Source: Gammaproteobacteria bacterium (GTDB lineage: Bacteria > Pseudomonadota > Gammaproteobacteria > SURF-13). From it: a DNA stretch of 64,000 nt. Location: positions 358 through 64,357 of the forward strand of contig JBCKVB010000003.1 of assembly GCA_038924245.1 (NCBI GenBank), in the 5' to 3' direction. The notes beneath the pieces are model-generated. The model was not told the DNA's origin. It did no database searches and saw only the letters and a program-made list of their open reading frames with translations. Shown piece after piece: positions 12,708-47,451 of the stretch (position 1 is its first letter; each line of letters opens with the position of its first letter). The translations under genes were made by a program, and so were the position numbers.

Positions 12708-12723
12708 TATAACGATAGTTATA
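12708..12723. promoter_or_regulatory. palindromic operator candidate in the TA promoter region (TATAAC-GATA-GTTATA)
   Basis: Perfect 6-bp arms lie 10-25 nt upstream of the antitoxin start, within an AT-rich stretch that has TATAAT-like hexamers on the minus strand. Confidence 0.35.
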
Positions 12724-12741
12724 CTGGATTATAACTTATGT

Positions 12742-12963
12742 GGCATTGTTAAATTAGTATAGGAACCCCCGCTGTGTTGTCATTTCGCCGCTCCTGCGCA
12801 TCGCTATGCCTGCGGCACTTGTGCATCCCTGTACATCGAAGCGTAGCGAGAAATCTGTTACGAATAGCCTTCACTGTAATCAGGGCGTTACAAGATTTCT
12901 CCCGTGGGTCGAAATGACATGTGCGGGATTGATAAGAAATTACTATACTAAATTAACAATGCC
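12742..12963. mobile_element. MITE-like element, 222 bp, 21-bp terminal inverted repeats GGCATTGTTAA(A/T)TTAGTATAG
   Basis: Left end GGCATTGTTAAATTAGTATAG (12742-12762). Right end CTATACTAAATTAACAATGCC (12943-12963) is its reverse complement with 1 mismatch. Inside is a second inverted repeat, TGTCATTTCG/CGAAATGACA, and a diverged copy of the CAGGGATG hairpin repeat. No coding capacity. Confidence 0.7.
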
Positions 12964-12985
12964 GAAATTTTGTAGCCATCCGATT

Positions 12986-14449
12986 TCAGCGTGGCAAATC
13001 CGAGAAACCCATCAAAAACTCATCCGCCGCACGCGCGGCCTGGCGACCCTCACGGATTGCCCATACCACCAGAGACTGGCCGCGCCGCATGTCCCCCGCG
13101 GCGAATACTTTGTCGACCGAAGTCTGGTAGCAGCCGTCGCCATCGGTTGTTGCTTTGGCGTTGCCGCGCGCATCTTTTTCGACAGCGAACGCATCCAGCA
13201 CTTGCGCCACTGGCGACACAAAACCCATCGCCAGCAATACCAAATCCGCTTTCATTTCGAATTCGGAATTCGGCACCTCCTGCATCTTGCCGTCTTTCCA
13301 TTCGACGCGGGCCGCAATCAGCTTCTCGACCTTGCCGCCCTTGCCTTCGAAACGCTTGGTTGCGACCGCCCAACCGCGCTCGCAACCCTCTTCTTGTGAC
13401 GAGGAGGTGCGCAACTTGATCGGCCAGTACGGCCATACCAGCGGCTTATTCTCTTGCTCCGGCGGTTGCGGCATCAGCTCAAATTGGGCAAGGCTGGCAG
13501 TGCCATGGCGGTTGCATGTGCCCACGCAGTCTGAGCCGGTATCGCCACCGCCGATAACAACCACGTGCTTGCCGCTCGCCATGATCTGGTCCTTGAGCTT
13601 GTCACCTGCATCCACCTGGTTTTGCTGCAGCAGGAATTCCATCGCAAAATGGATGCCTTTCAGCTCACGACCAGGTACCGGCAGGTCGCGCGGCAATTCA
13701 GCACCGCCGGCGATGATGAAGGCATCGAATTCTTGATCGAGTTGCTTGGGCGAGATGGTTTTTTTGGCCAAGTTGGTGACGTTGGACGGGAAATCTTTGC
13801 CGATCAACACGCTGGTGCGGAAGCACACGCCTTCGGCTTGCATCTGCTCGACGCGGCGGTCGATATGCGACTTTTCCATCTTGAAGCCCGGAATGCCGTA
13901 ACGCAGCAAACCGCCGACCCGATCGTTTTTCTCGAACACAGTCACGTCGTGACCGACACGCGCGAGTTGCTGGGCTGCAGCCAGACCAGCGGGGCCGGAT
14001 CCAACCACGGCAATTTTTTTACCAGTCTTGAAGGCGGCCGGTTGCGGCATAACCCAGCCGTTTTCCCAACCCTTATCGATGATGAGACGCTCGATTGATT
14101 TGATGCCAACCGCGTCGTTGTTGATGGCAAGCACACAGGCAGATTCGCACGGTGCCGGGCAGATGCGGCCGGTGAATTCGGGGAAGTTGTTGGTCGAATG
14201 CAGCGTCTCTAACGCTTCGCGATAATTGCCGCTATAAACCAGGTCGTTCCAGTCGGGGATAATGTTATTGACCGGGCAACCGGTCATGCAAAACGGCGTG
14301 CCGCAATCCATACAGCGCGCACCCTCTGTTTTCGCTTGCTCATCGTTCAACTGCAGAATGAACTCTTTGTAGTTCTTGACGCGTGAAGCGGCCGGTAAAT
14401 ACGATTCTTTCTGACGCTGAAATTCCATAAAGCCGGTTACTTTACCCAT
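12986..14449 (-). CDS. gltD: glutamate synthase (NADPH) small subunit
   Basis: 487 aa with the Fe-S Cys cluster (CMDCGTPFC...GCPV) and two dinucleotide-binding motifs ([23 protein letters not shown]). Confidence 0.95.
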
Positions 14450-14589
14450 TGCCTACCTCTGCCTTCTCTAGCTCCCCCGTGGCAGGGGGAGGGTTCGGGG
14501 TCGAATCCCACATCCTTGTTGTCATTGGCTGGAGGCCGATCCCCCATCCTGACCTTCCCCAGCAGGAGGAAGGCACTGGCGGCGCAAAC

Positions 14590-17500
14590 TTATGCTGCAT
14601 TTTTTTCTTTCTGCTGACTAACCACTTGCGCCGCATTCATCTCACCCAATGCGCGCTTGTACTCGTTCGGGAAGACTTTGATAAATTTGTTGCGGCCATT
14701 GGACCAGTCATCCAGCAAGTTGCGCGCGCGCGTGCTGCCGGTGTACTTGAAATGGCGCTCAATCAGGCGTTTTAGAATCGCCTCGTCGGTTTCACTTTGG
14801 TCGCCACGCAGCTGGCTATGCCAGATCGAGCGAGCGACTTTAGCTTCTTGCTCGGCGTGCGCGAGGACAGGTTCCAGCGTGACCATCGCCATATTGCATT
14901 TTTTGGCGAAATCGCCGTCAGGGTCATACACGTAAGCGATACCCCCCGACATACCGGCGGCAAAGTTACGGCCGGTTTCTCCCAACACCACCACGGTGCC
15001 GCCAGTCATGTATTCACAACCATGGTCGCCGACGCCTTCAACCACTGTGATGGCGCCGGAATTGCGCACCGCGAAGCGCTCGCCGGCGACGCCGTTAAAA
15101 AATGCCTCACCGGCAATCGCGCCGTATAACACGGTGTTGCCGATGATGATGTTGTCGACTGCCGAACCGCGAAACTCTGTATGCGGACGGACGATAATGC
15201 GTCCGCCCGACAAACCCTTGCCGACGTAATCATTGCCTTCGCCGACTAGATCCAGCGTGATGCCGTGCGCCAGGAACGCGCCGACCGATTGGCCTGCGGT
15301 GCCTAGCAACTGGATGTGGATGGTGTCGTCGGGCAAGCCTTCGTGACCGTATTTTTTTGCAACGATGCCAGACAGCATGGTGCCGACCGTGCGGTTGACG
15401 TTCCTGACCGGCAAAATGAACGAGACTTTTTCGCCTTTTTCGAGCGCCGCTTTCGCTTGCGCGATCAGCTTATGGTCGAGTGCTTTTTCCAGGCCGTGGT
15501 CTTGCTCTTCCACTTGATAACGCGGTACGGAAGCGGGCACTTCCGGCTGATAGAAAATTTTTCTGAAATCAAGTCCCTTGGCTTTCCAGTGCGAAATCGC
15601 TTTCGATTTGTCGAGCAAGTCGACGCGGCCGATCAAGTCATCAAACGTGCGGATGCCTAGTTGCGCCATCAACTGCCGCGCTTCCTCGGCGACGAAGAAG
15701 AAATAGTTGACCACGTGTTCCGGCTTGCCGGAGAACTTGGCGCGCAGCACCGGGTCTTGTGTCGCGATGCCGACCGAGCAAGTATTGAGGTGGCATTTGC
15801 GCAACATGATACAGCCTTCAACCACCAGCGGCGCGGTCGCGAAACCGATCTCGTCTGCGCCCAGCATGGCTGCGATCACGACATCGCGGCCGGTCTTCAT
15901 TTGGCCATCAGCTTGTACCCGGATGCGGCCGCGCAAACCGTTCAGTACCAGCGTTTGCTGGGTTTCTGCCAAGCCCAATTCCCACGGCGTTCCCGCATGT
16001 TTGAGCGAAGACAAAGGCGAGGCGCCGGTGCCGCCGTCATGGCCGGCGATCACCACGTGATCGGCCTTGGCCTTGGTGACGCCGACCGTGACCGTGCCAA
16101 CCCCGACTTCGGACACCAACTTGACGGAGATCGACGCTCTTGGATTTGCATTTTTCAAATCGTGAATCAGCTGCGCCAAGTCTTCGATCGAATAAATATC
16201 GTGATGCGGCGGCGGCGAAATCAAGCCGACGCCCGGCACCGAGAAACGCAATCTGGCGATATATTCAGACACCTTGTAGCCCGGCAACTGTCCGCCTTCG
16301 CCCGGCTTGGCGCCTTGCGCCATCTTGATCTGGATTTGGTCGGCGGAATTCAAATACGCTGCTGTCACGCCGAAGCGGCCCGCCGCGACTTGCTTGATCC
16401 TGGAACGCACCGAATCGCCATCTTGCAATGCAATATCGACTTCAACCTGGTCACGGCCGATGACGGATGCCATGGTCTCGCCCTGCTTGATCGGGATGCC
16501 TTTCATCTCCTGGCGATAGCGACTCGGATCTTCACCGCCTTCGCCGGTGTTGGACTTGCCGCCGATGCGGTTCATCGCGACCGCCAGCGTGGCGTGCGCT
16601 TCGGTGCTGATCGAGCCAAGCGACATTGCGCCGGTGGAGAAGCGCTTGACGATTTCTTTCGCCGGCTCGACTTCATCTAGCGCAATCGCCTTGGACGGGT
16701 CCAGCTTGAATTCAAACAAACCGCGCAGGGTCATGTGCCGCTTGCTTTGGTCGTTGATGATCTGCGCATACTCTTTGTAGGTGCTGAAATTATTGGATCG
16801 GGTCGAATGCTGCAGCTTGGCAATCGCATCCGGCGTCCACATGTGCTCTTCGCCGCGCACGCGGAACGCGTATTCGCCACCGGCATCGAGCGCATGCGCC
16901 AGCACCGGGTCGTTGCCGAAGGCTTGCTGGTGCAGACGCAACGCCTCTTCTGCCACTTCGAGTACGCCGATACCTTCGATATTGGATGCAGTGCCTTTGA
17001 AGTACTTGTCCATCAACGATTTATTCAAGCCGATCGCTTCGAAAATCTGCGCGCCGCAGTACGACATGTAAGTCGAAATGCCCATTTTCGACATCACCTT
17101 CAGCAAGCCCTTGTTGAGCGCTTTCTGGAAATTGTAGATGGCTTTTTCCGGCGACAAATCGCCGGGCAATCTCTTGGCCATTTCCGCCAGCGTATCCATT
17201 GCCAGATACGGGTGGATCGCCTCCGCGCCGAAACCAGCGAGCAGCGCGAAATGATGCGTTTCACGGGCAGAACCGGTTTCCACCACCAAGCCGGTCGACG
17301 TGCGAAAACCCTTGCTGACCAGATGCAAATGGATTGCCGACGTCGCGAGCAAGGCCGGGATCGCCACTTGCTCGGCGTCCACCTTGCGGTCGGACACGAT
17401 CAGGATGTTGTGGCCTGATTTGACCGCATCCACCGCTTGCGCACACAGCGATGCCAGGCGCACTTCCATGCCTTCTTTACCCCAAGCCACCGGATAGCAA

Positions 17501-19332
17501 ATATTCAGTTCGTGCGATTTGAACTTGCCGCCGGTGTGGGCGCTGATGTTGCGCAGTTTGGCGATGTCTGCATAGTCCAGAATCGGCTGCGACACTTCCA
17601 AGCGCATCGGCGGATTGATGTTATGGGTGTCGAGCAGGTTCGGCCTGGGGCCGATGAAGGACACCAGCGACATCACCATCGCTTCGCGGATCGGATCGAT
17701 CGGCGGGTTGGTCACTTGCGCGAACATCTGCTTGAAGTAGTGATACAGCGGTTTGAGCTTGTTGGACATCACTGCCAGCGGCGAGTCGTTGCCCATTGAG
17801 CCAGTCGCTTCTTCGGCATTCAGCGCCATCGGCGACATCAGTAGCTTGAGATCTTCTTGTGTGTAGCCGAATGCCTGCTGACGGTCGAGCAAGGATGCGG
17901 TGGTTTTTTCTGCCGATGTCCGCGTCTTGATGTCATCGAGCTTAATTTCGTTGAGCTTAATACGCACAGAATTGATCCACGCCTTGTAAGGCTTGGCGTT
18001 GGCGTAGATATCTTTGATTTCCTTGTCATCGATGAGGCGGCCGGCTTCGAGGTCGATTAGGAACATCTTGCCCGGTTGCAGACGCCATTTCTTGATGATC
18101 TTGGATTCCGGAATCGGCAGCACGCCGGCTTCGGATGCCATCACCACCAAGTCGTCATCGGTTACGATATAACGCGCGGGACGCAAGCCGTTGCGATCCA
18201 GGGTGCCACCGATGTAACGACCATCGGTGAACGCCATCGCGGCGGGGCCATCCCACGGCTCCATCATCGCGGCGTGATATTCGTAGAAGGCGCGGCGGTT
18301 GTCGTCCATCAACGTGTGGTTTTCCCATGCTTCCGGGATCATCATCATCATCGCTTGCGCGATCGGATAGCCTGCCATCAGCAGCAGTTCAAGCGCGTCA
18401 TCGAAGCACGCGGTGTCGGACTGGCCCTCGTAAATCAGCGGGAACAATTTTTGCAAATCGTCGCCTAGCACGGCGGATTTCATCACGCCTTCACGCGCGC
18501 GCATCCAGTTGACATTGCCCTTGACAGTATTGATCTCGCCGTTGTGGGCGATCAGGCGATAGGGGTGGGCCAGCGGCCATTCCGGAAAGGTATTGGTCGA
18601 GAAGCGTTGATGCACCAGTGCCAATGCGGAAACGCAGCGCGCATCCTGCAAGTCTTTGTAATAGACGCCGACTTGATCCGCCAGCAGCAAACCCTTGTAG
18701 ACAATGGTACGGGCCGACATCGACGACACGAAAAATTCCTTGCCGTGGATCAAATTTAGCGCCCGGATCGCATGACCGGAAGACTTGCGAATCACGTACA
18801 GTTTACGTTCCAGCGCATCGGTCACCATGATGTTTGGACCGTGACCTATGTAGATCTGGCGGATCACCGGCTCTTTTTCACGCACCGTGGGCGACATCGG
18901 CATCTCGGTGTCGATCGGCACGTTGCGCCAACCCAGCACGACCTGGCCTTCGGCGCGCACCGCACGTTCTATCTCTTGCTCGCACGCGATGCGGGATGCA
19001 TTTTCTTTCGGCAAAAAAATCATGCCAACGCCATATTCTCCGGGCGGCGGCAGTTCGACACCCTGCTTGGCCATCTCTTCGCGATAGTACTGATCCGGCA
19101 ACTGAATCAGAATGCCCGCGCCGTCGCCCATCAACTTGTCGGCACCGACCGCGCCGCGATGGGCGAGATTCTTCAGGATGAGCAAGCCTTGCTCAACGAT
19201 CGAATGACTTTTATTGCCTTTAATATGGGCGATGAAACCGATGCCGCAGGCATCATGCTCGTTAGCGGGGTTGTACAGGCCGTGTTGCTGGAGGTGTTGA
19301 ATTTTGGCTTCGATGCCGTGCTTGTGCTCCAT
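14590..19332 (-). CDS. gltB: glutamate synthase (NADPH) large subunit
   Basis: Contains the amidotransferase N-terminus (…[13 protein letters not shown]), FMN domain and GXGXG C-terminal domain. The ORF-track start is GTG 19383. I prefer ATG 19332 ([10 protein letters not shown]…), which has AGAGGA 8 nt upstream. Confidence 0.95.
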
Positions 19333-19409
19333 AGCGCATTCCTCTATTTTTCGCAGGGCAGATAATGGAAACTCATAGTACACGGCAACAACAATGCCAA
19401 GAAAAATAA

Positions 19410-19490
19410 GGCATTGTTAATTTAGTATAGCTTCCAGGCCCCCATTCCATTTAAGCATGAGAAGCATCACCGAATTAAATTAACAATGCC
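19410..19490. repeat. 81-bp element with the same terminal repeat as the 12742-12963 MITE, immediately upstream of gltB
   Basis: GGCATTGTTAATTTAGTATAG (19410-19430) and AATTAAATTAACAATGCC (19473-19490) match over 16 bp when inverted. An extra AACAATGCC half-site at 19390-19398 can pair with 19410-19418. Confidence 0.65.
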
Positions 19491-19550
19491 GACACGCAAA
19501 GGGTCTATCAGTATAACGCTGGTGGGTTTTTTTCTCAACGCGGGAAAGCG

Positions 19551-20699
19551 TTATGACGACTCTGTGGGGTTGAACAGGCGCTGATATTCGGCGATGGCGT
19601 AGCGGTCGGTCATGCCGGCGATGTAATCGGCCACCGCGCGCGCGCGGCCCGCTTTGTCCTGGGGCTGCTCCAGCGCCTGCGCCTTGGCCGCGAACTCCGG
19701 CGGCAGCAGGCCGGGCTCGCTGAAAAACGCCTCGAACAGCGCGCGCAGGGTGCGCGCGGCCTTGTTGGTCATGCGCTGCACACGGTAGTGCTTGTACAGA
19801 TACCGGCGCAGGAACTGTTTCAATTCCAGGCTTTGCGCGCGCATCGCGTCGCTGAAGCCGATCAAGGGTTCGGCCAGGCGGCGCACGGCGGCGCTGTTTT
19901 CAGGCGCGGCGCGCTCGATGCGCGCGCGGCTGGTATCCACCAGGTCCACGATCTGCGCGTTAATCATGCGCCGTACCGACTCATGAATGGCGCGCCGTAC
20001 CGGGAGGTCAGGATAGGATTTTTTGACGCGTTCATATTGCACGCGGAATAGTTCAATCTCGGCCAGTTGCTCCAGGGTGATGAGACCGGAGCGCAGGCCG
20101 TCGTCCACGTCGTGACTGTTGTAAGCAACCTCGTCGGCAAGATTGGCAAGCTGCGCCTCCAGGCCGGGTTGGGTTTTATTCAAGAAGCGCGCGCCCAGCT
20201 CGCCCAGTTCCCTGGCCTTGGCGGGCGAGCAATGCTTGAGGATGCCCTCGCGCGTCTCGAAGGTGAGGTTCAAGCCCTGAAACTCCGCGTAACGCTCTTC
20301 CAGTTCGTCCACCACGCGCAGCGATTGCAGATTGTGTTCAAAGCCGCCGAACTCGCGCATGCAGTCATTCAACGCATCCTGACCGGCGTGGCCGAACGGC
20401 GTGTGGCCGAGGTCGTGCGCGAGCGCGATGGCCTCGGCCAGGTCTTCGTTGAGCGCGAGCGCGCGCGACACCGAACGCGCGATCTGCGCTACCTCGATGG
20501 AATGGGTGAGCCGGGTGCGGAACATGTCGCCTTCGTGATTCACGAACACCTGGGTCTTGTACTCCAGGCGCCGAAACGCCGCGCTGTGCACGATGCGGTC
20601 GCGGTCGCGCTGATACTCGCTACGGTAGGCGGGCGCGGCCTCTTGATAGCGCCGCCCGCGCGATGTGGCCGGGTCGTCAGCGTAGGGAGCGAGCGTCAT
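19551..20699 (-). CDS. dgt: dGTPase-like HD-domain triphosphohydrolase
   Basis: 382 aa. [22 protein letters not shown]...RLTHSIEV and [10 protein letters not shown] are motifs of the Dgt-like family. It overlaps the aroB stop by 4 nt. Confidence 0.9.
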
Positions 20700-29998: not shown

Positions 29999-30634
29999 AT
30001 GGCCACGCACGAACAACGCCAGCGCCGCATGATCGCCCTGGAGGCGGCGCGGCTCATCGCCGAACACGGCATGAGCGACTACCATGCCGCGAAATGCAAG
30101 GCCGCGCGGCGCCTCGGCGTGCATGAGCCGCTGCCGCGTAATGAAGAGGTGGAGCAGGCGCTGGGAGATTATCAGCGCTTGTTTCAGGCCGGCACGCAGC
30201 CGCGCCATTTGCGGAAGCTGCGCGAGGCGGCGCAGCAGGCGATGCGCTTGCTGGAGCGCTTTGAGCCGCGCCTCACGGGCTCCGTGCTGTCCGGCACCGC
30301 GCACCGGCATTCCGACGTGAATCTGCACCTGTTCGCCGGCACGCCGGAAGAAGTGGGCTGGTTTCTGGACAGCCAGGCCATTCCGTTTCAACTGGCGCAG
30401 CGCCACTTCAGCTTTACCTCCGCTGAACCGGCCAGGACCTGCCCGGTATACCGTTTTGTCGCGGGCGATGTGACCCTGGACCTCGCGGTGTTCCCTCTGC
30501 TCGGCCTGCGCCAGGCGCCGCTCGGTCCCGTGGACGGGCGGCCCATGCCGCGCATCGCGCTCGCGGCGCTGCGTAAGCTGGCTGAGCCGCGAAGCGGAGA
30601 AGGCCAGCACAAGGAGGTGCTGGCGGGTGTTTGA
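29999..30634 (+). CDS. conserved hypothetical protein, possibly a minimal nucleotidyltransferase fold
   Basis: 211-aa ORF starting 4 nt after the mrcA stop. LTGSVLSGTAHRHSDVNLHLF resembles the hG[GS]x9-13Dh[DE]h NTase motif, but with N replacing the second acidic residue. Confidence 0.6.
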   Translation: MATHEQRQRRMIALEAARLIAEHGMSDYHAAKCKAARRLGVHEPLPRNEEVEQALGDYQRLFQAGTQPRHLRKLREAAQQAMRLLERFEPRLTGSVLSGTAHRHSDVNLHLFAGTPEEVGWFLDSQAIPFQLAQRHFSFTSAEPARTCPVYRFVAGDVTLDLAVFPLLGLRQAPLGPVDGRPMPRIALAALRKLAEPRSGEGQHKEVLAGV

Positions 30635-30719
30635 GGTTGAGATGTTATTGCGCCAGGGATGGCATCACGGCTGTTTATCGAGGCCAGGTAGCTTATAAGT
30701 TGGAGTAATGCGTCATTCC

Positions 30720-30857
30720 GACGTACAGGGATGTACTAGTGTCGCGGGAGGCAGGACGCCGGGAGCGACCGACGTACAGGGAAGAGCGCCAGCGAAGGGT
30801 TCAGGGATAGCGAAGGGTTCTGCTAGTGTCGCGGGAGGCAGGATGCCGGGAGCGGCC
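30720..30857 (+). repeat. Two tandem copies (51 bp + 87 bp) of the modular GACGYACAGGGA…GGGAGCGRCC repeat
   Basis: Copy 1 (30720-30770): GACGTACAGGGATGTACTAGTGTCGCGGGAGGCAGGACGCCGGGAGCGACC. Copy 2 (30771-30857) has the same ends plus AGAGCGCCAGCGAAGGGT and TCAGGGATAGCGAAGGGT modules. The ORF 30708..30926 is just this repeat read in frame. Confidence 0.85.
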
Positions 30858-31084
30858 GACACACGCTGTGGCGTCATTTTTTTGACACATCTGTATGCAC
30901 AACGGCCTGTCTTATACACATTCTAAGATCGGTGTCCAGAGAAGGTTCGCGCAGGGTGCTCGAGAAAGCCGCAGCCATACAGTTAACTAAATGATATAAT
31001 TAACTATTTTTATGACAAGATCAAATTATGACCATTCTGTTACAGGCTCCACTGGGATGGGCTTTTGCGCCCTTTTACCCCATG

Positions 31085-31119
31085 TCATCCACAAAGTTAT
31101 CCACAGATTTTGTGGATAA
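31085..31119. promoter_or_regulatory. cluster of three DnaA boxes upstream of priA
   Basis: TCATCCACA (31085-31093, 1 mismatch), TTATCCACA (31097-31105, perfect) and TGTGGATAA (31111-31119, perfect, inverted). An AT-rich tract lies at 30961-31040. Confidence 0.6.
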
Positions 31120-31217
31120 CAAAATTCCTAAACCGGGACAGAAGCTTAGCGGATGGAGATGATACCGCTTCTGCTGTAGCCCCCCGCCCCCCGCATCTTT
31201 GCTGACATCCTGCTCCC

Positions 31218-33290
31218 ATGCCCCGTGATTATCTGGTGTTGCGCGTCGCGGTACCCGTGCCACTGCCGCGCTGGTTTGATTATTTAGCCCCGCGCGTCTG
31301 TCCACACCCGCCGCAACCGGGCATGCGCGTCAAGGTGCCGTTCGGACGCAGCGAGGCAGTGGGATTGATAATGGAGCTCGCCAACCAGAGCGCGCTGGGC
31401 GAGGGGCGCTTGAAACATGCCTTGAGTCTGCTGGATGAACAGCCGTTGCTGGATGAATCACTGCTCGGCCTGTTGCGCTGGGCGAGCGCTTATTATCACC
31501 ACCCCATCGGCGAAGTGGTGGCCGCCGCCTTGCCCGGACACTTGCGCGCCGGACGCGCCGCCTCGCTGGCTGATCCCGGCGACGCACAGGGAAGAGCGCC
31601 AGCGAAGGGTTCTGCTAGTGTCGCGGGAGGCAGGATGCCGGGAGCGACCGCGCTGGATCAGGGGCTGCTTGCGGCCGCGCCGCCCGTGCTGAACGGCGCG
31701 CAGCAACAAGCCGTCACCGAGGTGGCGGAGGCGCAAGGCTTTCAGGTGTTGCTCTTGCAAGGCGTCACCGGCAGCGGCAAGACCGAGGTGTATCTGCGCC
31801 TGATTGAGCGGGTGGTGGCGCGCGGCGCGCAAGTGCTGGTGCTGGCGCCGGAGATCGGCCTCACCCCGCAACTGCTGGCGCGTTTTCAGCAGCGTTTCGC
31901 CGTGCCGATAGCGGTTCTGCATTCCGCCCTGGGCGAGCGCGAGCGCGCACAGAACTGGCTCGCCGCGCGCGCGGGCCGCGCGCCCATCGTGCTCGGCACG
32001 CGCTCCGCCGTGTTCACGCCCCTTGCGCGGCCTGGCCTCATCATCATAGACGAGGAGCACGACGCCTCGTTCAAACAGCAGGACGGGTTCCGCTATCACG
32101 CGCGCGACGTCGCCATCCTGCGCGCGCAACGCGCCGGCATCCCGGTGCTGCTCGGCTCCGCCACCCCTTCCTTCGAATCGCTGTACAACGTGCGCCAGGG
32201 GCGCTACCGCGCGCTGAGTCTGCCGGAGCGCGCCGGCGGCGCGGCGCATCCGGAGATGCGGCTGCTGGACGTGCGCCATCAAGTGTTGCAGGGCGGCATG
32301 TCGGCGCCGCTGCTCGACGCGGTGGGCGAGCACCTGGCGCGCGGTGAACAGGTGCTGCTGTTTTTAAACCGGCGCGGTTTCGCGCCGCTGCTCATGTGCC
32401 ACGCCTGCGGCTGGAGCGCGCAGTGCGAACGCTGCGACGCGCGCATGGTGCTGTATCTCGATCAGGCGCGCGCTTTGCACTGCCAGCACTGCGGCGCGCA
32501 ACGCGCGCGCCCGGAGCAGTGCGCGGCGTGCCAGAGCGCCGAGCTGCGCGTGCTGGGTTACGGCACCGAGCGCGTCGAGCAAACCCTGCGCGAGCACTTT
32601 CCCGCCGCCGAGGTGCTGCGCATAGACCGCGACAGCACGCGGCGCAAGGGCGCGCTCGATGATCTGCTCGCGCGCGCGCAACAGGGTGGCGCGCAAATCC
32701 TCATCGGCACCCAGATGCTGGCCAAAGGCCATCACCTGCCCAATGTCACCCTGGCCGGGATACTCAACCTGGATCAAGGTTTGTTCGGGGCGGATTTCCG
32801 CGCCGCCGAGCGCATGGCGCAGCTCATCGTGCAGGTGGCGGGGCGCGCCGGGCGCGCGCACAAGCCAGGGCGGGTGCTGATCCAGACCCATCACCCCACG
32901 CACCCCTTGCTCACCGCGCTCATCCGTGACGGCTATGCCGCCTTTGCCGAGGCGGCGCTCACCGAGCGAAAACACACGCACTTGCCGCCTTACAGCAGTC
33001 TGGCGTTGCTGCGCGCCGAGGCGGTGAACCGTAGCGCGCCGCTGGAATTCTTGCGCGCGGCGCAGGCCGCCGCCGAACCTCTGGCCGGCGCCGCCGTACA
33101 GATACTGGGGCCGGTCAGCGCTCCCATGGAGCGGCGCGCCGGGCGTTACCGCGCGCAACTGCTGGTGCAAGCCGCGCGCCGTAATGAATTGCAGCGTCTG
33201 CTCGATGCCTGGATGCCGCTGCTGGAGACGATCAAGACCGCGCGCAAGGTACGCTGGTCGCTGGATGTGGATCCGGTGGAGATACTTTGA
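31218..33290 (+). CDS. priA: primosomal replication-restart helicase PriA (carries a 69-bp in-frame repeat insert)
   Basis: 690 aa with Walker A GVTGSGKTEVY, DEEHD, and the Cys-rich zinc region CHACGWSAQCERCDARMVLY…CQHCG…CAACQS. Confidence 0.95.
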   Translation: MPRDYLVLRVAVPVPLPRWFDYLAPRVCPHPPQPGMRVKVPFGRSEAVGLIMELANQSALGEGRLKHALSLLDEQPLLDESLLGLLRWASAYYHHPIGEVVAAALPGHLRAGRAASLADPGDAQGRAPAKGSASVAGGRMPGATALDQGLLAAAPPVLNGAQQQAVTEVAEAQGFQVLLLQGVTGSGKTEVYLRLIERVVARGAQVLVLAPEIGLTPQLLARFQQRFAVPIAVLHSALGERERAQNWLAARAGRAPIVLGTRSAVFTPLARPGLIIIDEEHDASFKQQDGFRYHARDVAILRAQRAGIPVLLGSATPSFESLYNVRQGRYRALSLPERAGGAAHPEMRLLDVRHQVLQGGMSAPLLDAVGEHLARGEQVLLFLNRRGFAPLLMCHACGWSAQCERCDARMVLYLDQARALHCQHCGAQRARPEQCAACQSAELRVLGYGTERVEQTLREHFPAAEVLRIDRDSTRRKGALDDLLARAQQGGAQILIGTQMLAKGHHLPNVTLAGILNLDQGLFGADFRAAERMAQLIVQVAGRAGRAHKPGRVLIQTHHPTHPLLTALIRDGYAAFAEAALTERKHTHLPPYSSLALLRAEAVNRSAPLEFLRAAQAAAEPLAGAAVQILGPVSAPMERRAGRYRAQLLVQAARRNELQRLLDAWMPLLETIKTARKVRWSLDVDPVEIL
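31581..31649 (+). repeat. 69-bp copy of the modular repeat inside priA (translated as DAQGRAPAKGSASVAGGRMPGAT)
   Basis: GACGCACAGGGAAGAGCGCCAGCGAAGGGTTCTGCTAGTGTCGCGGGAGGCAGGATGCCGGGAGCGACC. Nearly identical to the intergenic copy at 30771-30857 minus one 18-bp module. Confidence 0.9.
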
Positions 33291-33293
33291 CGG

Positions 33294-33380
33294 CAGAGAA
33301 AAGATACAAGAGAAAAGATACAAGGGAAGAGGTAAAATAACCGCTGATCCTTTCCTCTTTTCTCTTGCCTCTTTTCTCTG
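33294..33380. repeat. long imperfect polypurine/polypyrimidine hairpin (AGAGAAAAGATACAAG repeats) between priA and argS
   Basis: Left arm CAGAGAAAAGATACAAGAGAAAAGATACAAGGGAAGAGG. Right arm CCTTTCCTCTTTTCTCTTGCCTCTTTTCTCTG. A related single arm lies at 56539-56578. Confidence 0.7.
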
Positions 33381-37845: not shown

Positions 37846-37874
37846 AATGTATGACCTGTCCTTGTGAGCCTGGC

Positions 37875-40613
37875 ATGAAACCCTCTTTGTTACTGGTGGA
37901 CGGCAGTTCTTATCTGTATCGCGCCTTCCACGCGCTGCCGCCGCTCAACAATTCCCAGGGCGAGCCGACCGGCGCGGTGTACGGCGTGCTCAACATGCTG
38001 CGCAAGCTCAGCGCCGACACTCAGCCAAAATACATCGCGCTGGTGTTCGACGCCAAGGGCAAGACCTTCCGCGACGAGCTGTTCGAGCGCTACAAGGCGC
38101 AACGCCCCCCCATGCCGGATGACCTGGTGCGCCAGATCGAGCCGCTGTACGCCATTATACAAGCAATGGGTCTGCCATTAATAAGCCTCTCAGGCGTGGA
38201 GGCCGACGACGTGATCGGCACGCTCGCCATCCAGGCGGCGGCGCAGGGCATGGACACGCTCATCTCCACCGGCGACAAGGACTTCGCGCAACTGGTGAAC
38301 GGCCACATCACGCTCATCAACACCATGACCAATACGGTATTGGACCGGCAAGGCGTGATGGAAAAATTCGGCATCACGCCGGAACAGATCATCGCCTATC
38401 TCACCCTGGCGGGCGACGCGGCGGACAACGTGCCCGGCGTGCCCAAGGTGGGGCCGGTCACCGCGGTCAAGTGGCTTAACCAATACGGCACGCTGGCCAA
38501 CATCGTGGCGCACGCGCAAGAGATACCCGGCAAGGTGGGCGAGAATCTGCGCGCCGCCATCCCGCTACTGCCGCTGTACCAGCAAGTGCTCACCATCAAG
38601 TGCGACGTCGCGCTGCCGTGTACGCTGCTGGATTTGCAGCCGCGCGCGCCGGATGTCGCGGCGCTACGCCAGCTTTATCAACGCATGGAGTTCAAACGCT
38701 GGCTGGCCGATCTGGGTAAAGATATTAGCCCGGCGCAGAACAATACCCCCGCACCCTTCGCTTGCGCTCTTCCCTATAAGGGAGAGGGTAGGGGTGAGGG
38801 TGGAAAGATCGCCGGTACACAGGCACCTAACCCCCCCCCAGCGGCGCCGGTTACCTTCGAGACGCCAGGTTCCATCGAGGAACTGCAAAACTGGGCCGCG
38901 GCGCAGCGCGCTGCCACAACACTCACCCTGGCGCTGGAAACCTCTGACGCACAGGGACGTGCTAATGTCGCGGGAGGCAGGACGCCGGGAGCGACCGGCG
39001 CGGACTACATGCGCGACGAACTGACCGGGCTGGCATTGCAGACGGGAGAAGGCGCGGCGCTTTACCTTGCATTCACCGATGTCCTGCCGCGTGAGGCGGC
39101 GCTCGGTGCCTTGCGTGCGCTGTTACAGGATGCCGCCGTTGAAAAACGTGGGCACGATCTCAAGTTCGCGCTGAATGTGCTGGCGCGCTATGGCGTTGAC
39201 CTGCAAGGGCTGCGCTTTGACGTGATGCTGGAGTCCTATGTGCTGGACAGCACCGCCACGCGGCACGATCTTGCCGCGCTGTGTGAAAAATACCTGGGCG
39301 CGAAGGCGACCGACGCTTGCGCACAACGCCTTTCCGCGCTGCAACGGTTGCACGAACTGCTCTGGCCGCAGTTGCAAAAAATCGCGCCCTTAAAAAAATT
39401 ATTCACCGAGATTGAAATGCCGCTCATTCCGGTGCTGGCGCGCATCGAGCGCGCCGGAGTGGGCGTGGATGTGCGTCTTCTAAACGCGCACAGCGAACAA
39501 CTCGCCGCGCGCCTCAAGCAACTAGAAGATCAGGCGTATCAAATGGCCGGGCAGATGTTCAACTTGAGCTCGCCGCAGCAACTACAGGGCATCCTCTACG
39601 ACAAGCTCGGCTTGCCGGTGCTGAAAAAAACGCCCAAGGGCCAGCCCTCCACGGCGGAGGAGGTGTTGCGGGAACTGGCGCTCGATTATCCGCTGCCCAA
39701 GCTGATTCTGGAGCAGCGCACGCTGAGCAAGCTCAAGTCTACTTACACCGATCGCCTGCCGGAACAAGTCAACTCCGTCACTGGGCGCGTGCACACGCGC
39801 TATCATCAGGCCGTCACCGCCACCGGACGCCTGTCGTCCAGCGACCCCAATCTGCAAAACATCCCGGTGCGCGGCGAGGAGGGCAAGCGTGTGCGCGCGG
39901 CGTTCATCGCGCCCGCCGGTTATCAATTACTCTCCGCCGATTATTCGCAGATCGAACTGCGCATCATGGCGCACCTCTCCGGCGACGCGCGCCTGAAGCA
40001 CGCCTTCGCGGGCAATCAGGACATCCACAAGGCCACCGCCGCCGAGGTGTTCGGCGTCAAACTCGAACAGGTGAGCGCGGAGCAGCGGCGTGCCGCCAAG
40101 GTCATCAACTTCGGATTGATCTACGGCATGTCGGCGTTTGGCTTGGCCAAACAACTCGGCGTGCCGCGCGAGGCGGCGCAGCAGTACATGACACTGTATT
40201 TCGCGCGCTACCCCGGCGTGCAGGCGTTCATGGAACGCACGCGCGCACAGGCGCGCCAGCAAGGTTACGTGGAAACCTTATACGGCCGGCGCCTGTATCT
40301 GCCTGAGATCAACAGCCGCAACGGACAACTGCGCCAATACGCCGAGCGCACCGCCATCAACGCGCCCATGCAGGGCAGCGCCGCCGACATCATCAAGCTC
40401 GCCATGCTGCGTATTGACGCCTGGCTGCAACAAAACAAGTTCAACGCGCGCATGATCATGCAAGTGCATGACGAATTGGTGTTCGAGGTGGCGGAACAAG
40501 ACTGTGGGGCGTTGGCCGACGCGGTGCGCCGCCTGATGACCGGCATCGAAGGCCTGTCCGTCCCCTTAAGCGTGGATATCGGCATAGGCCGCAACTGGGC
40601 GGTGGCGCATTAA
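37875..40613 (+). CDS. polA: DNA polymerase I (carries two different in-frame repeat inserts; 3'-5' exonuclease motifs look degenerate)
   Basis: MKPSLLLVDGSSYLYRAFHALPPL… (5' nuclease domain). Polymerase motifs A (LLSADYSQIELRIMAH), B (RRAAKVINFGLIYG) and C (QVHDELVFE). The alternative ORF-track start is 37851. Confidence 0.95.
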   Translation: MKPSLLLVDGSSYLYRAFHALPPLNNSQGEPTGAVYGVLNMLRKLSADTQPKYIALVFDAKGKTFRDELFERYKAQRPPMPDDLVRQIEPLYAIIQAMGLPLISLSGVEADDVIGTLAIQAAAQGMDTLISTGDKDFAQLVNGHITLINTMTNTVLDRQGVMEKFGITPEQIIAYLTLAGDAADNVPGVPKVGPVTAVKWLNQYGTLANIVAHAQEIPGKVGENLRAAIPLLPLYQQVLTIKCDVALPCTLLDLQPRAPDVAALRQLYQRMEFKRWLADLGKDISPAQNNTPAPFACALPYKGEGRGEGGKIAGTQAPNPPPAAPVTFETPGSIEELQNWAAAQRAATTLTLALETSDAQGRANVAGGRTPGATGADYMRDELTGLALQTGEGAALYLAFTDVLPREAALGALRALLQDAAVEKRGHDLKFALNVLARYGVDLQGLRFDVMLESYVLDSTATRHDLAALCEKYLGAKATDACAQRLSALQRLHELLWPQLQKIAPLKKLFTEIEMPLIPVLARIERAGVGVDVRLLNAHSEQLAARLKQLEDQAYQMAGQMFNLSSPQQLQGILYDKLGLPVLKKTPKGQPSTAEEVLRELALDYPLPKLILEQRTLSKLKSTYTDRLPEQVNSVTGRVHTRYHQAVTATGRLSSSDPNLQNIPVRGEEGKRVRAAFIAPAGYQLLSADYSQIELRIMAHLSGDARLKHAFAGNQDIHKATAAEVFGVKLEQVSAEQRRAAKVINFGLIYGMSAFGLAKQLGVPREAAQQYMTLYFARYPGVQAFMERTRAQARQQGYVETLYGRRLYLPEINSRNGQLRQYAERTAINAPMQGSAADIIKLAMLRIDAWLQQNKFNARMIMQVHDELVFEVAEQDCGALADAVRRLMTGIEGLSVPLSVDIGIGRNWAVAH
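38767..38803 (+). repeat. G-rich REP-type element (CTCTTCCCTATAAGGGAGAGGGTAGGGGTGAGGGTGG) inside the polA interdomain linker
   Basis: Hairpin followed by a GGGT-rich tail. Translated in frame as …LPYKGEGRGEGG…. A similar hairpin-plus-GGGTTCGGGGT element lies in the gltB-gltD spacer (14470-14510). Confidence 0.7.
38946..38996 (+). repeat. 51-bp copy of the modular repeat inside the polA exonuclease domain (translated DAQGRANVAGGRTPGAT)
   Basis: GACGCACAGGGACGTGCTAATGTCGCGGGAGGCAGGACGCCGGGAGCGACC. Same orientation and reading frame as the priA copy. Confidence 0.9.
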
Positions 40614-42971: not shown

Positions 42972-44150
42972 ATGTCCGCATCACCAGAAACGTTAATCAA
43001 GGATTTTGGCAAACCGTCGTTTTTGAGCACGCTCACGCTGTTCGACTGGGTGTGGGCGGCGCTGGTGGTGGGCGGCGCGGCCTACGTGCTGTACCGCTAC
43101 GGCGCGGTGATGAGTGAGTATGAGATCGGCACCTTATGCGGGGGGGCGCTCCTGTTGACAGGCACCGGCTGGCACTGGAAGCCGTTGCGCGTGTTTTCGC
43201 TGGCGGTGGCGGCGCTGAGCTTGAGCGCCGTGTGGTTGTATGGATCCCAGCTCGCCAGCGCCGAAACCAGTTTCATTTTACGGTATCTGCTCGCCAGCCA
43301 GTCCGCGATTATGTGGATGAGCACGCTGTTTATTCTCGGCACGCTCGCCTATTTCATCAGTCTGTTCGCGCGCTCCGATTACGCCGGACAGCTCGCCTCC
43401 GCGTTCACCTGGAGCGCCGCCGCGGCGGGACTCATCGGCCTCATGGTGCGCTGGCGCGAGTCGTATTTGATCCACCCCGACGTGGGCTACATGCCGCTGA
43501 GCAATCTGTACGAGGTATTCATCCTGTTCATGCTCGTCACCACGCTGTTGTATCTTTATTATGAAGGGCGCTACCAGACGCGCGCGCTGGGCCCGTTCGT
43601 GATGCTGATTATCGGCGCGGCGCTGGCGTTTCTGCTCTGGTTCACCTTCGAGCGCGACGGGCACGAGATACAAGGCTTGGTGCCCGCCCTTAAAAACTGG
43701 TGGATGAAGATCCATGTGCCGGCCAATTTCGTCGGCTACGGCTCATTCGCGCTCGCCGGGATGGTGGCTATCGCCTATCTGTTGCGCGAGCGCGCCGAGC
43801 GCGTCAATCCGCAAGGCGTATTTGCCACGCGCCTGCCCAGCCTGGAGATCATGGATGACCTCATGTACAAGGCCATCACGCTGGGCTTCGGCTTTTTCAT
43901 GCTCGCCACCGTGCTTGGCGCGCTGTGGGCCGCGGAGGCCTGGGGCGGCTACTGGTCGTGGGATCCGAAGGAGACCTGGGCGCTCATCATATTGCTCAAC
44001 TACGCCGGCTGGCTGCACTTCCGCTTCACCAAGGGCTGGCGCGGCACGCCCATGGCATGGTGGGCGATAGGCGGTCTAGGCATTACCACTTTCGCCTTCA
44101 TGGGCGTGAACATGTTTCTCACCGGCCTGCATTCGTACGGCGGTCTGTAG
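42972..44150 (+). CDS. ccsA: cytochrome c-type biogenesis protein CcsA/ResC (haem exporter/lyase)
   Basis: Polytopic membrane protein with the WWD-type tryptophan-rich motif (WGGYWSWDPKETWALI). GGAGA lies 6 nt before ATG 42972. Confidence 0.9.
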   Translation: MSASPETLIKDFGKPSFLSTLTLFDWVWAALVVGGAAYVLYRYGAVMSEYEIGTLCGGALLLTGTGWHWKPLRVFSLAVAALSLSAVWLYGSQLASAETSFILRYLLASQSAIMWMSTLFILGTLAYFISLFARSDYAGQLASAFTWSAAAAGLIGLMVRWRESYLIHPDVGYMPLSNLYEVFILFMLVTTLLYLYYEGRYQTRALGPFVMLIIGAALAFLLWFTFERDGHEIQGLVPALKNWWMKIHVPANFVGYGSFALAGMVAIAYLLRERAERVNPQGVFATRLPSLEIMDDLMYKAITLGFGFFMLATVLGALWAAEAWGGYWSWDPKETWALIILLNYAGWLHFRFTKGWRGTPMAWWAIGGLGITTFAFMGVNMFLTGLHSYGGL

Positions 44151-44158
44151 AGATATTA

Positions 44159-44306
44159 AGGAACCTCTGATTTATTCAGAGGTTCCTGCGGCACAGGGAT
44201 GTGCCGCCATTTCCAATGGCGTTAAGCCATTGGAAATGAAGGAAAGTGAAAATCACATTTTTCACTTTCCGTGCTCTGAGAAGTCCGGGACGGACTTATT
44301 CAGAGC
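44159..44306. repeat. cluster of five consecutive perfect hairpins between convergent ccsA and the cNMP-binding gene
   Basis: H1 44159-44187 (12-bp stem). H2 44189-44206 (CGGCACA-GGGA-TGTGCCG). H3 44208-44238 (12 bp). H4 44241-44270 (12 bp). H5 44272-44306 (CTCTGA…AAGTCC-GGGAC-GGACTT…TCAGAG). Confidence 0.85.
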
Positions 44307-44310
44307 TTCC

Positions 44311-44854: not shown

Positions 44855-45184
44855 TTACAAAATCATGCTGGCCGCGATCACCATCGCCGCGCTGGTGGAA
44901 AAATAGGCCATCCCGCTCATCAGTTCCGTGGTGGCGCAGGAACTGGTGGCGCGCATCTCAAACAGGGAGAGCTGCTGCCCGGGTGCGTGCTGCAATTGTC
45001 GCCTTCCCATCAGTTGAACAGCCAGCTGGAGGTGCGCTTCCTGAGCCATGACAGGTTTCAGGGCCTTACGCGCTTGGGCGGGTGTTTTGTCGGTTTGGAA
45101 CCCAGCCAGCAACAACTCGTGGAACGCACCGTCGCCGCCCTGGAACGCAACCGTCGCCGCAAGCAGACGGAATAATATTGTCAT
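44855..45184 (-). CDS. hypothetical protein (about 109 aa)
   Basis: ORF with coding-like composition. I start it at ATG 45184 (MTILFRLLAATVAF…) because the longer track ORF (to 45262) runs through a repeat hairpin. Confidence 0.45.
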   Translation of the reverse strand: MTILFRLLAATVAFQGGDGAFHELLLAGFQTDKTPAQARKALKPVMAQEAHLQLAVQLMGRRQLQHAPGQQLSLFEMRATSSCATTELMSGMAYFSTSAAMVIAASMIL

Positions 45185-45385
45185 GCCAGAGTGAGCCGCG
45201 AAGCGGCGACCGTTTGGCAGGATAGCCAAACGGTCGCCGCCGTTAGGCGGCCCGTAGGGCAAGGCACAGGGAAGAGCGAAGCGAAGTCCTGCCTTGTGAA
45301 CGCCACGCCAGGGAAGGCGTGGCCGGTGTCTGGAGATGCCACTGATGCGACGCCAGGGACGGCAAGGAAAATGTTATTTTAAAAC
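45185..45385. repeat. REP-like hairpin cluster next to tRNA-Pro
   Basis: Begins with GTGAGCCGCGAAGCGGCGA. Perfect 16-bp hairpin at 45203-45240. Further hairpins have (A)GGGA(A) loops (CAAGGCA…TGCCTTG; GCCACGCC-AGGGAA-GGCGTGGC) and GCGAAGCGAAG words. Confidence 0.8.
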
Positions 45386-45389
45386 TGAA

Positions 45390-45466
45390 TGGTCGGGGTG
45401 AGAGGATTTGAACCTCCGGCCCCTAGCTCCCGAAGCTAGTGCTCTACCAAGCTGAGCTACACCCCG
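45390..45466 (-). tRNA. tRNA-Pro (anticodon CGG)
   Basis: The reverse complement CGGGGTGTAGCTCAGCTTGGTAGAGCACTAGCTTCGGGAGCTAGGGGCCGGAGGTTCAAATCCTCTCACCCCGACCA folds as a cloverleaf. Anticodon loop TTCGGGA. CCA is encoded. Confidence 0.95.
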
Positions 45467-47186: not shown

Positions 47187-47212
47187 GCCCCCGCGCGGGG
47201 CTTTGTCGTTTT
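47187..47212 (+). terminator. intrinsic terminator after rpmA
   Basis: GC stem GCCCC-CGCGC-GGGGC followed by TTTGTCGTTTT. Confidence 0.6.
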
Positions 47213-47330
47213 ACAGGGTGAGCCGCGAAGCGGCGAACGCCAAGCCACGGATGGCTTGGCCGGGGCTGATAAGTAAACTGAAGTATCGCCAGGGATGGCG
47301 AAGATGAAGGTTACTACGACCAATGGGCCG
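47213..47330. repeat. REP-like hairpin cluster upstream of tRNA-Leu
   Basis: Starts with the same GTGAGCCGCGAAGCGGCGA word as 45191. Hairpins GCCAAGCCA-CGGA-TGGCTTGGC (47239-47260) and TCGCCA-GGGA-TGGCGA. Confidence 0.75.
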
Positions 47331-47369
47331 TGCGCGCGAGCGTTATAATGTGCGGCAACCGATATGAAT

Positions 47370-47451
47370 GCGAAAGTGGCGAAATCGGTAGACGCGCTGG
47401 TTTTAGGTGCCAGTGGGGCAACCCGTGAGAGTTCGAGTCTCTCCTTTCGCA
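47370..47451 (+). tRNA. tRNA-Leu (anticodon TAG)
   Basis: GCGAAAGTGGCGAAATCGGTAGACGCGCTGGTTTTAGGTGCCAGTGGGGCAACCCGTGAGAGTTCGAGTCTCTCCTTTCGCA has a long variable arm and anticodon loop TTTAGGT. CCA is not encoded. A TATAAT hexamer lies at 47344-47349. Confidence 0.95.

Follow-up and report, generated by a model that had tools for sequence, protein, structure and literature searches.

The DNA analysed here, called the window, is a stretch of 64,000 nucleotides of contig JBCKVB010000003.1 from a gammaproteobacterium of the SURF-13 lineage, and its positions 30720-30857 carry a tandem pair of a small structured repeat, the subject of this study. The first unit of the pair (30720-30770, plus strand) is a full 51-nt copy in intergenic DNA, lying 5' of a cluster of DnaA boxes and of priA; it has a two-hairpin fold and scores 81.2 bits over columns 1-52 of a covariance model built from 97 copies. 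Directly adjoining it is an intergenic 87-nt variant (30771-30857, plus strand, 51.7 bits), in which two 18-nt modules, AGCGCCAGCGAAGGGTTC and AGGGATAGCGAAGGGTTC, stand inside hairpin 1. A 69-nt variant found by the covariance model (31581-31649, plus strand), with one such module in hairpin 1, lies in frame in priA (open reading frame, ORF, 31218-33290), where it codes for DAQGRAPAKGSASVAGGRMPGAT, residues 122-144 of PriA, and has PriA Pfam domains on either side. Another 51-nt unit (38946-38996, plus strand, 78.2 bits) lies in frame in polA, the gene of DNA polymerase I (ORF 37851-40613, assigned by Pfam like priA), and codes for DAQGRANVAGGRTPGAT at residues 366-382, where the 3'-5' exonuclease domain begins. 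Both inserts start at codon position 1 and are thus read in the same frame. The fifth full copy, again of 51 nt (59435-59485, minus strand, 81.3 bits), stands between convergent genes and lies in sense to queF (59501-59992, minus strand), whose stop codon precedes its start by 14 nt. Our preferred reading, to which we give a probability of about 0.6, is that these copies belong to a family of small non-autonomous mobile DNA elements that behave like the Rickettsia palindromic elements (RPEs).

The 29-nt core of the unit, GTCGCGGGAGGCAGGAYGCCGGGAGCGRC, occurs in the window with at most 2 mismatches at 30741, 30828, 31620 and 38967 on the plus strand and at 59436-59464 on the minus strand; dinucleotide-preserving shuffles of the window gave a match in 0 of 100 cases, against five in the real sequence. 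An unfiltered scan of the window with the covariance model retrieved all five full copies at 52-81 bits and added two diverged ones, after which the next-best match reached only E 0.19. One of these is a 53-nt intergenic copy of a second subfamily type (12786-12838, minus strand, 35.4 bits, E 3.7e-6), with hairpin 1 almost whole and decay in the inner loop of hairpin 2. The other (63862-63922, plus strand, 35.2 bits, E 4e-6) lies in frame +2 (..PHEAGGRERP..) in the ORF of a ZipA C-terminal domain (Pfam ZipA_C), has lost hairpin 1 and keeps most of hairpin 2. Decay of these two copies shows that maintenance is not universal. In addition, a reversed segment of GGGAAG plus 18-nt module (38744-38778, minus strand), an inverted repeat 86% complementary to 30775-30809, lies in a linker of polA that varies among orthologues. 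A first-pass annotation of the window, made from its letters, had placed the five full copies exactly here with lengths of 51, 87, 69, 51 and 51, had assigned two of them to priA and polA and had recognised the extra 18-bp modules, all of which is correct, Pfam agreeing on the two genes; the diverged copies that it suspected at 12780-12845 and 63900-63922 proved to be the two just described (E about 4e-6).

The basic unit of 51 nt reads Y-GAYG, hairpin 1 (GYRC-ANGGAW-GYRC), TAGT and hairpin 2 (GTCGC-GGGA-GGC-AGGAY-GCC-GGGA-GCGAC). In an alignment of 97 distinct copies this corresponds to Y in column 1, GAY, hairpin 1, a YAGT linker and hairpin 2, and within hairpin 1 positions C8, A9, G11, G12, A13 and G15 are invariant or almost so. 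The first loop G is conserved only to about 70%, and the GNRA-type tetraloop of the first-pass annotation must be given up, since the first base of the loop varies and the conserved part is A-N-G-G-A. Both hairpins are supported by compensatory base changes: at pair 6-17 of the hairpin 1 stem, 52 copies have UA and 42 have CG; at pair 7-16, 67 have AU, 15 GC and 6 CG; and at pair 24-50 of the hairpin 2 stem, 67 have UA and 24 CG. The covariation score was reached by 0 of 500 shuffles, and slid controls collapsed. One fold is predicted for the unit under RNA and DNA parameters alike; thermodynamic z-scores are modest (-0.6 to -2.6), and hence the evidence for structure comes from covariation, not from energy. 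Covariation also links column 1 (C or T) to column 21 (G or A), a position immediately 5' of the foot of hairpin 2 (CG in 68 copies, UA in 23, other combinations in 4). The GGGA strand shows 16 G-U pairs versus 6 A-C mismatches, an excess which weakly indicates that this is the functional strand. Compensatory changes in hairpin 1 swap encoded residues (V to A, T to A, C to S) with pairing kept, and it is therefore the structure of the nucleic acid, not the peptide, that is retained.

The core contains no stop codon in any of the six frames, as had been claimed for a 30-bp core; the CTAG-type 51-mer has a TAG stop in frames +3 and -3 and is open in the other four, and CAAG-type copies are open in all six. 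The ends of the unit, YGACG... and ...GCGAC, match each other directly and not in inverted orientation, so that terminal inverted repeats are lacking. A second subfamily of 52-53 nt has the interior of hairpin 2 swapped for a different GYRC-ANGGAU-GYRC hairpin on an unrelated stem. Loci studied as 8-kb pieces alongside the 64-kb window, cited here by L numbers, show that 69-nt copies are of two types. In one type the module is in hairpin 1 (window priA, L069, L072, L074, L006, L101), and in the other it is in the left loop of hairpin 2 (polA of L116, intergenic in L117, mrcA of L118). Since each type is found in different genes, each spreads as a unit.

The element is mobile, or was until recently, and orthologous sites record its insertion. 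In polA, orthologues of 95% and of 88-89% identity carry the insert, with an extra 18-nt module in L116, and all orthologues of 79% identity or less read LALETS|GADYM with the insert absent. At the DNA level the empty site of L115 reads ...ACATC^CGGCGCC, versus ...ACCTC[TGACG...GCGAC]CGGCGCG for the filled site, a gain of exactly 51 nt. No copy occupies the priA site of L119 (a 79% relative), where the window has 69 nt and L117, a 95% relative whose PriA is 95-98% identical to that of the window, has 135 nt; this 135-nt composite has a second module of 18 nt, and its hairpin 2 carries 48 inserted nt in the apical loop. Upstream of priA, L119 has nothing at the intergenic site, L117 has a single copy of 69 nt, and the window has two copies. 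The copy beside queF has an orthologue in L111 that is identical at 50 of 51 positions, with flanks of just 82-85% identity.

Copies have also entered other copies. In five loci a complete unit in reverse orientation lies within another, forming a 102-nt composite, and the nested copy stands just before CAGGAY of the host apical loop (L065, L074, L027, L104) or in the left GGGA loop of the host copy (L096). The halves of the host copy rejoin exactly, with nothing gained or lost. No target-site duplication was found at the filled versus empty polA site or at the junctions of nested copies, and by both kinds of site a duplicated CGAC target is ruled out. Copies often stand in tandem arrays (the window, L011, L015, L022, L055, L080, L082). 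Target preference is weak: the commonest left tetramer, CCTG, adjoins 11 of 108 copies, mostly nested cases, and the flanks are otherwise free of consensus beyond the Y at column 1 and a C after the unit.

By a simple criterion (an open frame of at least 450 nt) 98 of 125 copies are intragenic, and by a stricter one 65 of 123, the true fraction lying between both estimates. Among the open-frame copies the unit is in frame +1 in 54, -1 in 17, -2 in 11 and +2 in 10, and the sense bias in ORFs is about 2:1. Pfam confirms about 45 host ORFs in both orientations with domain architecture intact. Sense hosts are PriA, PolA, ZipA, ClpB, UvrA, two DnaE, an AddA-like helicase, MetE, ValS, IleS, DsbD, RNR, HisC (four copies), RecJ, an Lpd-like protein, three HsdM and a DnaG-like primase; antisense hosts are an ABC ATPase, PdxA, a Mur ligase, ManC, a GHMP kinase, AddB-like nucleases, YhdP, PLD, MutL, YjeF, an HD/ACT protein, an integrase and Mu GemA. 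Genes of DNA replication, repair and restriction are frequent in this set (PriA, PolA, DnaE twice, UvrA, AddA/AddB-like four times, MutL, RecJ, RNR, primase, HsdM three times, integrase), and their abundance may be a length effect, sampling having favoured long ORFs.

In its commonest frame the unit codes for a 17-residue loop rich in Gly, Ala, Ser and Pro, D[AV]QG..SVAGGR[MT]PGAT. PriA of the window was the one protein modelled with AlphaFold2 (mean predicted local distance difference test score, pLDDT, 85.6; predicted template modelling score 0.87); residues 120-152, insert included, are its sole segment with pLDDT below 50, and the model places the insert in a predicted disordered loop. The inserts of two DnaE genes are independent, are read in different frames and both occupy one and the same loop of the HHH_6 domain, which suggests filtering for permissive sites. 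The proposal that all lengths are multiples of three holds in the window and fails in other genomes for the 52-53 nt variants; these lie mostly outside ORFs, as would follow if only lengths divisible by three persisted in genes.

Other inserts and changes were seen around the same genes. The polA insert follows LALETS (window 38900-38945, PolA residues 355-365), where more distant orthologues read FDTETT, the ExoI motif of the 3'-5' exonuclease. The first Asp of the motif has been replaced in this clade, and proofreading may already have been lost. In-frame palindromic inserts of another type, CCCTCTCC...GGAGAGGG, occur in the polA linker (window 38700-38830, L115, L116) and in priA of L118, and one of 26 residues is found in P0003. 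The clade tolerates several families of coding palindromes.

A scan for the 23-nt centre of the core among species-representative genomes yielded at least 114 loci from at least 84 assemblies; the family thus extends well beyond the few copies of the window, and it is polymorphic between close relatives. Among the matches listed, the full unit is present at every one, and carriers are nearly all Gammaproteobacteria, many of them metagenome-assembled genomes, with one Nitrosomonas in addition. They include Lysobacter, Rhodanobacter, Thermomonas, Sedimenticola, Thiohalophilus, Thiohalomonas, Acidiferrobacterales, Gilvimarinus, Pseudomaricurvus, Porticoccaceae, Fluviicoccus, Photobacterium, Halomonas and a Solemya symbiont, and span Lysobacterales, Acidiferrobacterales, Thiohalomonadales, Sedimenticola, Cellvibrionales and others. 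Two carrier records that are metagenome-assembled genomes bear the labels 'Halobacteria archaeon' (L005, CAVYIJ010000001.1) and 'Klebsiella pneumoniae' (L083, CAMAXE010000048.1); given the remaining distribution, they are probably mis-binned or mislabelled gammaproteobacterial contigs. The covariance model, run over 119 loci, found 156 copies, about 25 of which miss the scan pattern with 1-6 differences in the core, and the core is therefore conserved, yet not invariant.

In the cultured taxa with one locus among the matches listed, the copy sits in a gene that is mobile in its own right: hsdM in Halomonas casei, Nitrosomonas eutropha and Endobugula, gemA of Mu in Photobacterium, and a primase gene in Fluviicoccus. 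For this reason part of the taxonomic breadth probably comes from hitch-hiking on horizontally transferred genes. A link to phages is limited to one match among 2.9 million viral contigs, and no association of element copies with plasmids or insertion sequences (IS) was seen. Rfam held no match for the unit, either for the window at gathering threshold or for 30.5-31.8 kb at E values up to 10. A search of the openly accessible literature found no paper with the sequence of the unit or its peptide, and none that ties CsrA to repetitive extragenic palindromes (REPs) or transposable elements of the miniature inverted-repeat kind (MITEs). As far as the openly accessible literature goes, we treat the family as undescribed.

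The property that we rate as most striking, and that was absent from the first-pass annotation, is the match of the loops to the binding site of CsrA/RsmA. The SELEX-derived consensus for CsrA is RUACARGGAUGU, with ACA and GGA 100% conserved, in a hexaloop on a stem of at most 4 bp; the repeat of CsrB is CAGGA(U/A/C)G, and a CsrA dimer bridges sites 10-63 nt apart (PMC7652899). Hairpin 1 (GUACAGGGAUGUAC) agrees with this consensus at each of its 12 positions, hairpin 2 holds the CsrB repeat as CAGGAUG at its apex (GGCAGGAUGCC), and the two loops are about 25 nt apart, inside the bridging range. Across copies and subfamilies, C-A-N-G-G-A-(U/W)-G on a four-base-pair stem is constant. From this match of the loops we infer that the unit could bind CsrA.

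No csrA gene lies within the window, and there is one in locus L104. No Csr or Rsm family of Rfam reached threshold in the window, RsmW and RsmV being the only near-threshold ones, and neither a promoter nor a terminator was detected at 30.3-31.3 kb. A conserved sponge small-RNA gene at 30.64-30.89 kb is ruled out, with promoter and terminator missing and copies numbering 2, 1 and 0 in the window, L117 and L119.

Hairpins with A-N-G-G-A loops on unrelated stems crowd the intergenic regions 44150-44310, 45176-45392 and 47200-47370. Intergenic GGA-loop hairpins of the window stand at 30603, 44188, 45302, 47239 and 47286; those near 44188, 45302 and 47286 had been pointed out in the first-pass annotation and are real, and the one near 44281, likewise pointed out there, is read straight from the sequence. 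The cluster at 45176-45392 (plus strand), related to the unit but separate, has hairpins at 45214-45231, 45302-45323 and about 45345, a copy of the GGGAAG plus module segment at 45258-45285, and a sub-threshold RsmW match (22.4 bits, E 0.75). These hairpin-packed intergenic regions, in which the sub-threshold Rfam matches to RsmV and RsmW fall, are candidates for sponge RNAs of Rsm/Csr type or for further element families. Another related but separate block (30578-30700, plus strand), at the 3' end of ORF 29999-30634, has, besides an GAGCCGCGAAGCGG repeat, a pair of hairpins with GGA loops (30603-30624 and about 30650-30667). Because the block is missing at the orthologous site of L119, it looks like an insertion too. 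A small repeat, GAGCCGCGAAGCGGMGA, occurs at 30584-30603, 45193-45212 and 47220-47239, each time followed by a GGA-loop hairpin. The word GCGAAGC, which had been described as recurring, is not enriched (17 seen versus 29.6 +/- 5.6 expected), and its positions had been given 1-5 nt off; among words of this type only the longer GAGCCGCGAAGCGG repeat is real.

RPEs are palindromic non-autonomous repeats that lie in frame in housekeeping genes (Ogata et al. 2000, 2002, summarised in PMC10969869), and a 2024 review of MITEs names them as the sole case of high-frequency in-frame insertion, similar cases in other prokaryotes being only speculated (PMC10969869). The unit resembles them in lying in frame in unrelated housekeeping genes, in adding a fold-compatible peptide, in being also intergenic and in having no known transposase. 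Two features of the RPE class were found here: in-frame insertion that leaves unrelated protein-coding genes intact, and placement of the insert in a fold-compatible region (in the AlphaFold2 model of PriA, one protein). RPEs differ in being about 100-150 bp long and confined to Rickettsia (Alphaproteobacteria), whereas the unit is 51 nt (69 or 87 with modules) and occurs in many gammaproteobacterial orders. The unit differs further in its two covarying hairpins with A-N-G-G-A loops, its self-nesting and its 18-nt sub-modules. Likeness to RPEs is claimed for behaviour only; the two are set apart by length and host range, and are not known to be related in sequence. Lacking both terminal inverted repeats and a target-site duplication, the unit is not a classical MITE.

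Within the preferred reading, a mobile family with RPE-like behaviour, the data show that the unit is added to a site as an exact 51-nt block, with neither target duplication nor terminal inverted repeats. Insertion takes place at many different sites, and repeatedly in or beside the loops of existing copies or adjoining them, and sub-variants with 18-nt modules (69 or 87 nt) spread as units. A length that is a multiple of three, together with four to six stop-free frames, leaves a gene intact when the insert falls in a permissive protein loop, and copies persist in either orientation. The element may move as a folded single strand, with the GGGA strand as the functional one, and a trans-acting factor conserved across gammaproteobacterial orders may read the two similar A-N-G-G-A loops. 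The mechanism could be of HUH/Y1 type, as in IS200/IS605 or RAYT-like systems (RAYT, REP-associated tyrosine transposase), or could be a host function of replication or repair. Since the same consensus is found in many orders, the recognising factor should be widely conserved, and a host function acting on single-stranded DNA, or CsrA itself, would fit better than a private transposase. Sense transcripts would show 2-4 GGA motifs per unit in the geometry of a CsrA/RsmA dimer, and copies may then double as CsrA sites or sponges.

Several observations weigh against this reading. Neither the window nor the 119 loci yielded a transposase or any other mobilising gene. Target preference is weak, unlike the strict 4-5-nt targets of IS200/IS605, and a single consensus over many orders would be unusual for an element tied to a lineage-specific transposase. 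The invariance of the core in the main alignment is partly an effect of ascertainment, since the scan itself used the 23-nt core as its pattern. Compensatory pairs distinguish orthologous copies in diverged genomes (L001/L109, L028/L110) and could reflect selection on structure at the level of the host and not pure selfishness. Antisense intragenic copies, validated by Pfam, are common, and CsrA binding in mRNA can therefore not maintain all copies.

This last point bears on two explanations built around CsrA. The first, to which we give less than even odds, is that the element is a mobile CsrA/RsmA-binding module: a transposable unit would carry paired high-affinity sites as a conserved 'cargo', seeding Csr control or CsrA titration into coding regions and untranslated regions. 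Tandem and clustered copies would then give rise to sponge RNAs, near-identity across orders would be explained by how extremely conserved CsrA is, and the unit might also draw on CsrA, or on a host function for single-stranded DNA, in its own propagation. The second, which we consider doubtful, gives selection by the host the leading part: copies would be CsrA/RsmA-binding RNA modules whose mobility is mere distribution, sense copies placing mRNAs under Csr control, clustered intergenic copies acting as sponges of CsrB/RsmZ type, and conservation across orders mirroring that of CsrA. The full consensus fit of hairpin 1, the CAGGAUG apex of hairpin 2 and the spacing of the loops are what such modules should have; the second subfamily retains the ANGGAU hexaloop on unrelated stems, and the clustering of other GGA-loop hairpins in intergenic regions of the window agrees with this, as do the RsmW and RsmV matches just short of threshold. 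Compensatory differences between orthologous copies, the sense bias in ORFs and the excess of G-U over A-C on the GGGA strand point the same way. However, at least 12 intragenic copies validated by Pfam are antisense, and the loops of their transcripts would be UCCC. Intergenic copies show no clear bias of orientation, by ORF-based gene calls that are crude and noisy in high-GC DNA, and the 79% relative lacks the intergenic tandem copy, for which neither promoter nor terminator was detected. The decayed copies at 12786 and 63862 and the lack of any Rsm/Csr family of Rfam at threshold also speak against host selection. The known CsrA sites and sponge RNAs (CsrB, RsmX/Y/Z/W/V; Rfam clan CL00106) share with the unit a GGA in the loop of a short hairpin and spacing in the bridging range, but the unit is no discrete small-RNA gene. 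It is a dispersed, mobile, largely intragenic DNA repeat in both orientations, its intergenic copy is conserved in close relatives only, and it has no Rfam match.

An unlikely alternative is a derivative of IS200/IS605, associated with a palindrome, in which the two hairpins would be minimal left and right ends, moved as single-stranded DNA by a Y1 HUH transposase acting in trans, with a guide base by the foot of a hairpin pairing with the cleavage site. Palindrome-associated transposable elements (PATEs) of this group and the unit have in common hairpins at both ends, the lack of inverted repeats and of target duplication, strand asymmetry and possibly guide-like covariation. The two hairpins of the unit are subterminal with similar loops, one functional strand is indicated, columns 1 and 21 covary beside the foot of hairpin 2, and insertions have occurred into loops of other copies that would be single-stranded. 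Moreover, most copies in the window are oriented such that the GGGA strand would be the lagging-strand template, to judge by the putative oriC, though numbers are small. Against this, no Y1 transposase was found near any copy in the 8-kb pieces and the window, and a tblastn search over about 1 Mb with approximate sequences of IS200 TnpA and YafM as queries gave one weak match only, unrelated by context. The unit has no strict tetra- or pentanucleotide target, hairpin 2 runs to its very end and leaves no space for a guide there, the loops fit the consensus of an RNA-binding protein, only one viral contig matched, and no plasmid or IS association was seen. Described PATEs are, in addition, far larger than the 51-nt unit.

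Very unlikely is membership in the REP/RAYT (REPIN) class, in which the unit would be an ordinary repetitive extragenic palindrome moved by a domesticated RAYT. Like REPs, it is a short, GC-rich hairpin repeat that forms clusters and inverted or nested pairs without target duplication, probably through single-stranded hairpins. A REP, in contrast, is one imperfect palindrome of about 20-40 nt that forms a single hairpin with a conserved tetranucleotide beside it; REPs lie essentially outside genes, are specific to a lineage and go with a RAYT gene that they flank. The unit has two hairpins in 51 nt, many of its copies are intragenic, and its sequence crosses orders. One carrier locus does contain a RAYT-like ORF (L066, 5347-5991) that has an HLH motif and matches YafM weakly, but its flanking repeat is a different and common one that translates as ..TLERPGMHSHAGAWER.., and the ORF is unrelated to the unit; no mobiliser was found in the 119 loci and the window. 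Membership in the REP/RAYT class is thus not supported. Of the earlier proposal, an undescribed REP/RPE-like family that survives in ORFs, what stands is a family that is undescribed, RPE-like, tolerated by genes and widespread, and the REP/RAYT part does not. That the encoded 17-residue peptide is what is selected, as a linker or as a recognition or processing tag with incidental hairpins, is barely credible: sense copies favour frame +1 over frame +2 (54 vs 10) and the peptide is conserved, but compensatory changes in hairpin 1 alter amino acids while pairing stays, the same sequence occurs in four frames, in both orientations and in intergenic DNA, and the insert is predicted to be disordered.

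Coding palindromes of still other kinds, the PARCELs and the QMITEs of Coxiella, are longer and differ in architecture and taxa. Both are described as palindromic or inverted-repeat coding elements in ORFs, some of them horizontally distributed (PMC2996958 for PARCELs, PMC5896051 for QMITEs).

The window has further features around the elements. Just upstream of priA (30900-31215), three DnaA boxes (TTATCCACAAAGTTATCCACAGATTTTGTGGATAAC) adjoin an AT-rich stretch with GATC sites. The DnaA-box block is strongly conserved in L117, L118 and L119, and cumulative GC skew is flat or low to about 28-30 kb and then rises steadily; the segment is a probable chromosomal origin. The GC content of 12000-20000 is 0.55-0.57, versus about 0.62 elsewhere; inverted repeats of 37 nt (12943-12979 and 19394-19430) bound this segment, which may be an island or a mobile segment, and a shorter sequence like them lies near 12745-12765. 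Directly after priA, an AT-rich repeat, CAGAGAAAAGATACAAG..., forms a palindrome (33292-33380) and recurs at 56543-56575; it may represent something like a terminator or a different family of repeats. A thiamine pyrophosphate riboswitch (6366-6479, 63.4 bits) and tRNA genes at 45393-45466 (minus strand), 47370-47451, 53861-53933 and 53943-54016 are also present.

RPEs are the textbook case of selfish DNA in coding genes, and the present family would extend the phenomenon to free-living and symbiotic Gammaproteobacteria, with essential genes of replication and repair such as those of PriA, PolA, DnaE, UvrA and MutL among its hosts. A unit of 51 nt would be a very small structured mobile element, without a known mobilising enzyme. 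The coincidence of its loops with the CsrA site suggests a route by which a post-transcriptional regulon might be rewired through transposition, and CsrA-like loops of this kind are a possible origin of sponge RNAs in lineages where none has been found. In metagenome-assembled genomes, such inserts will disturb alignments, gene calls, orthology and structure predictions.

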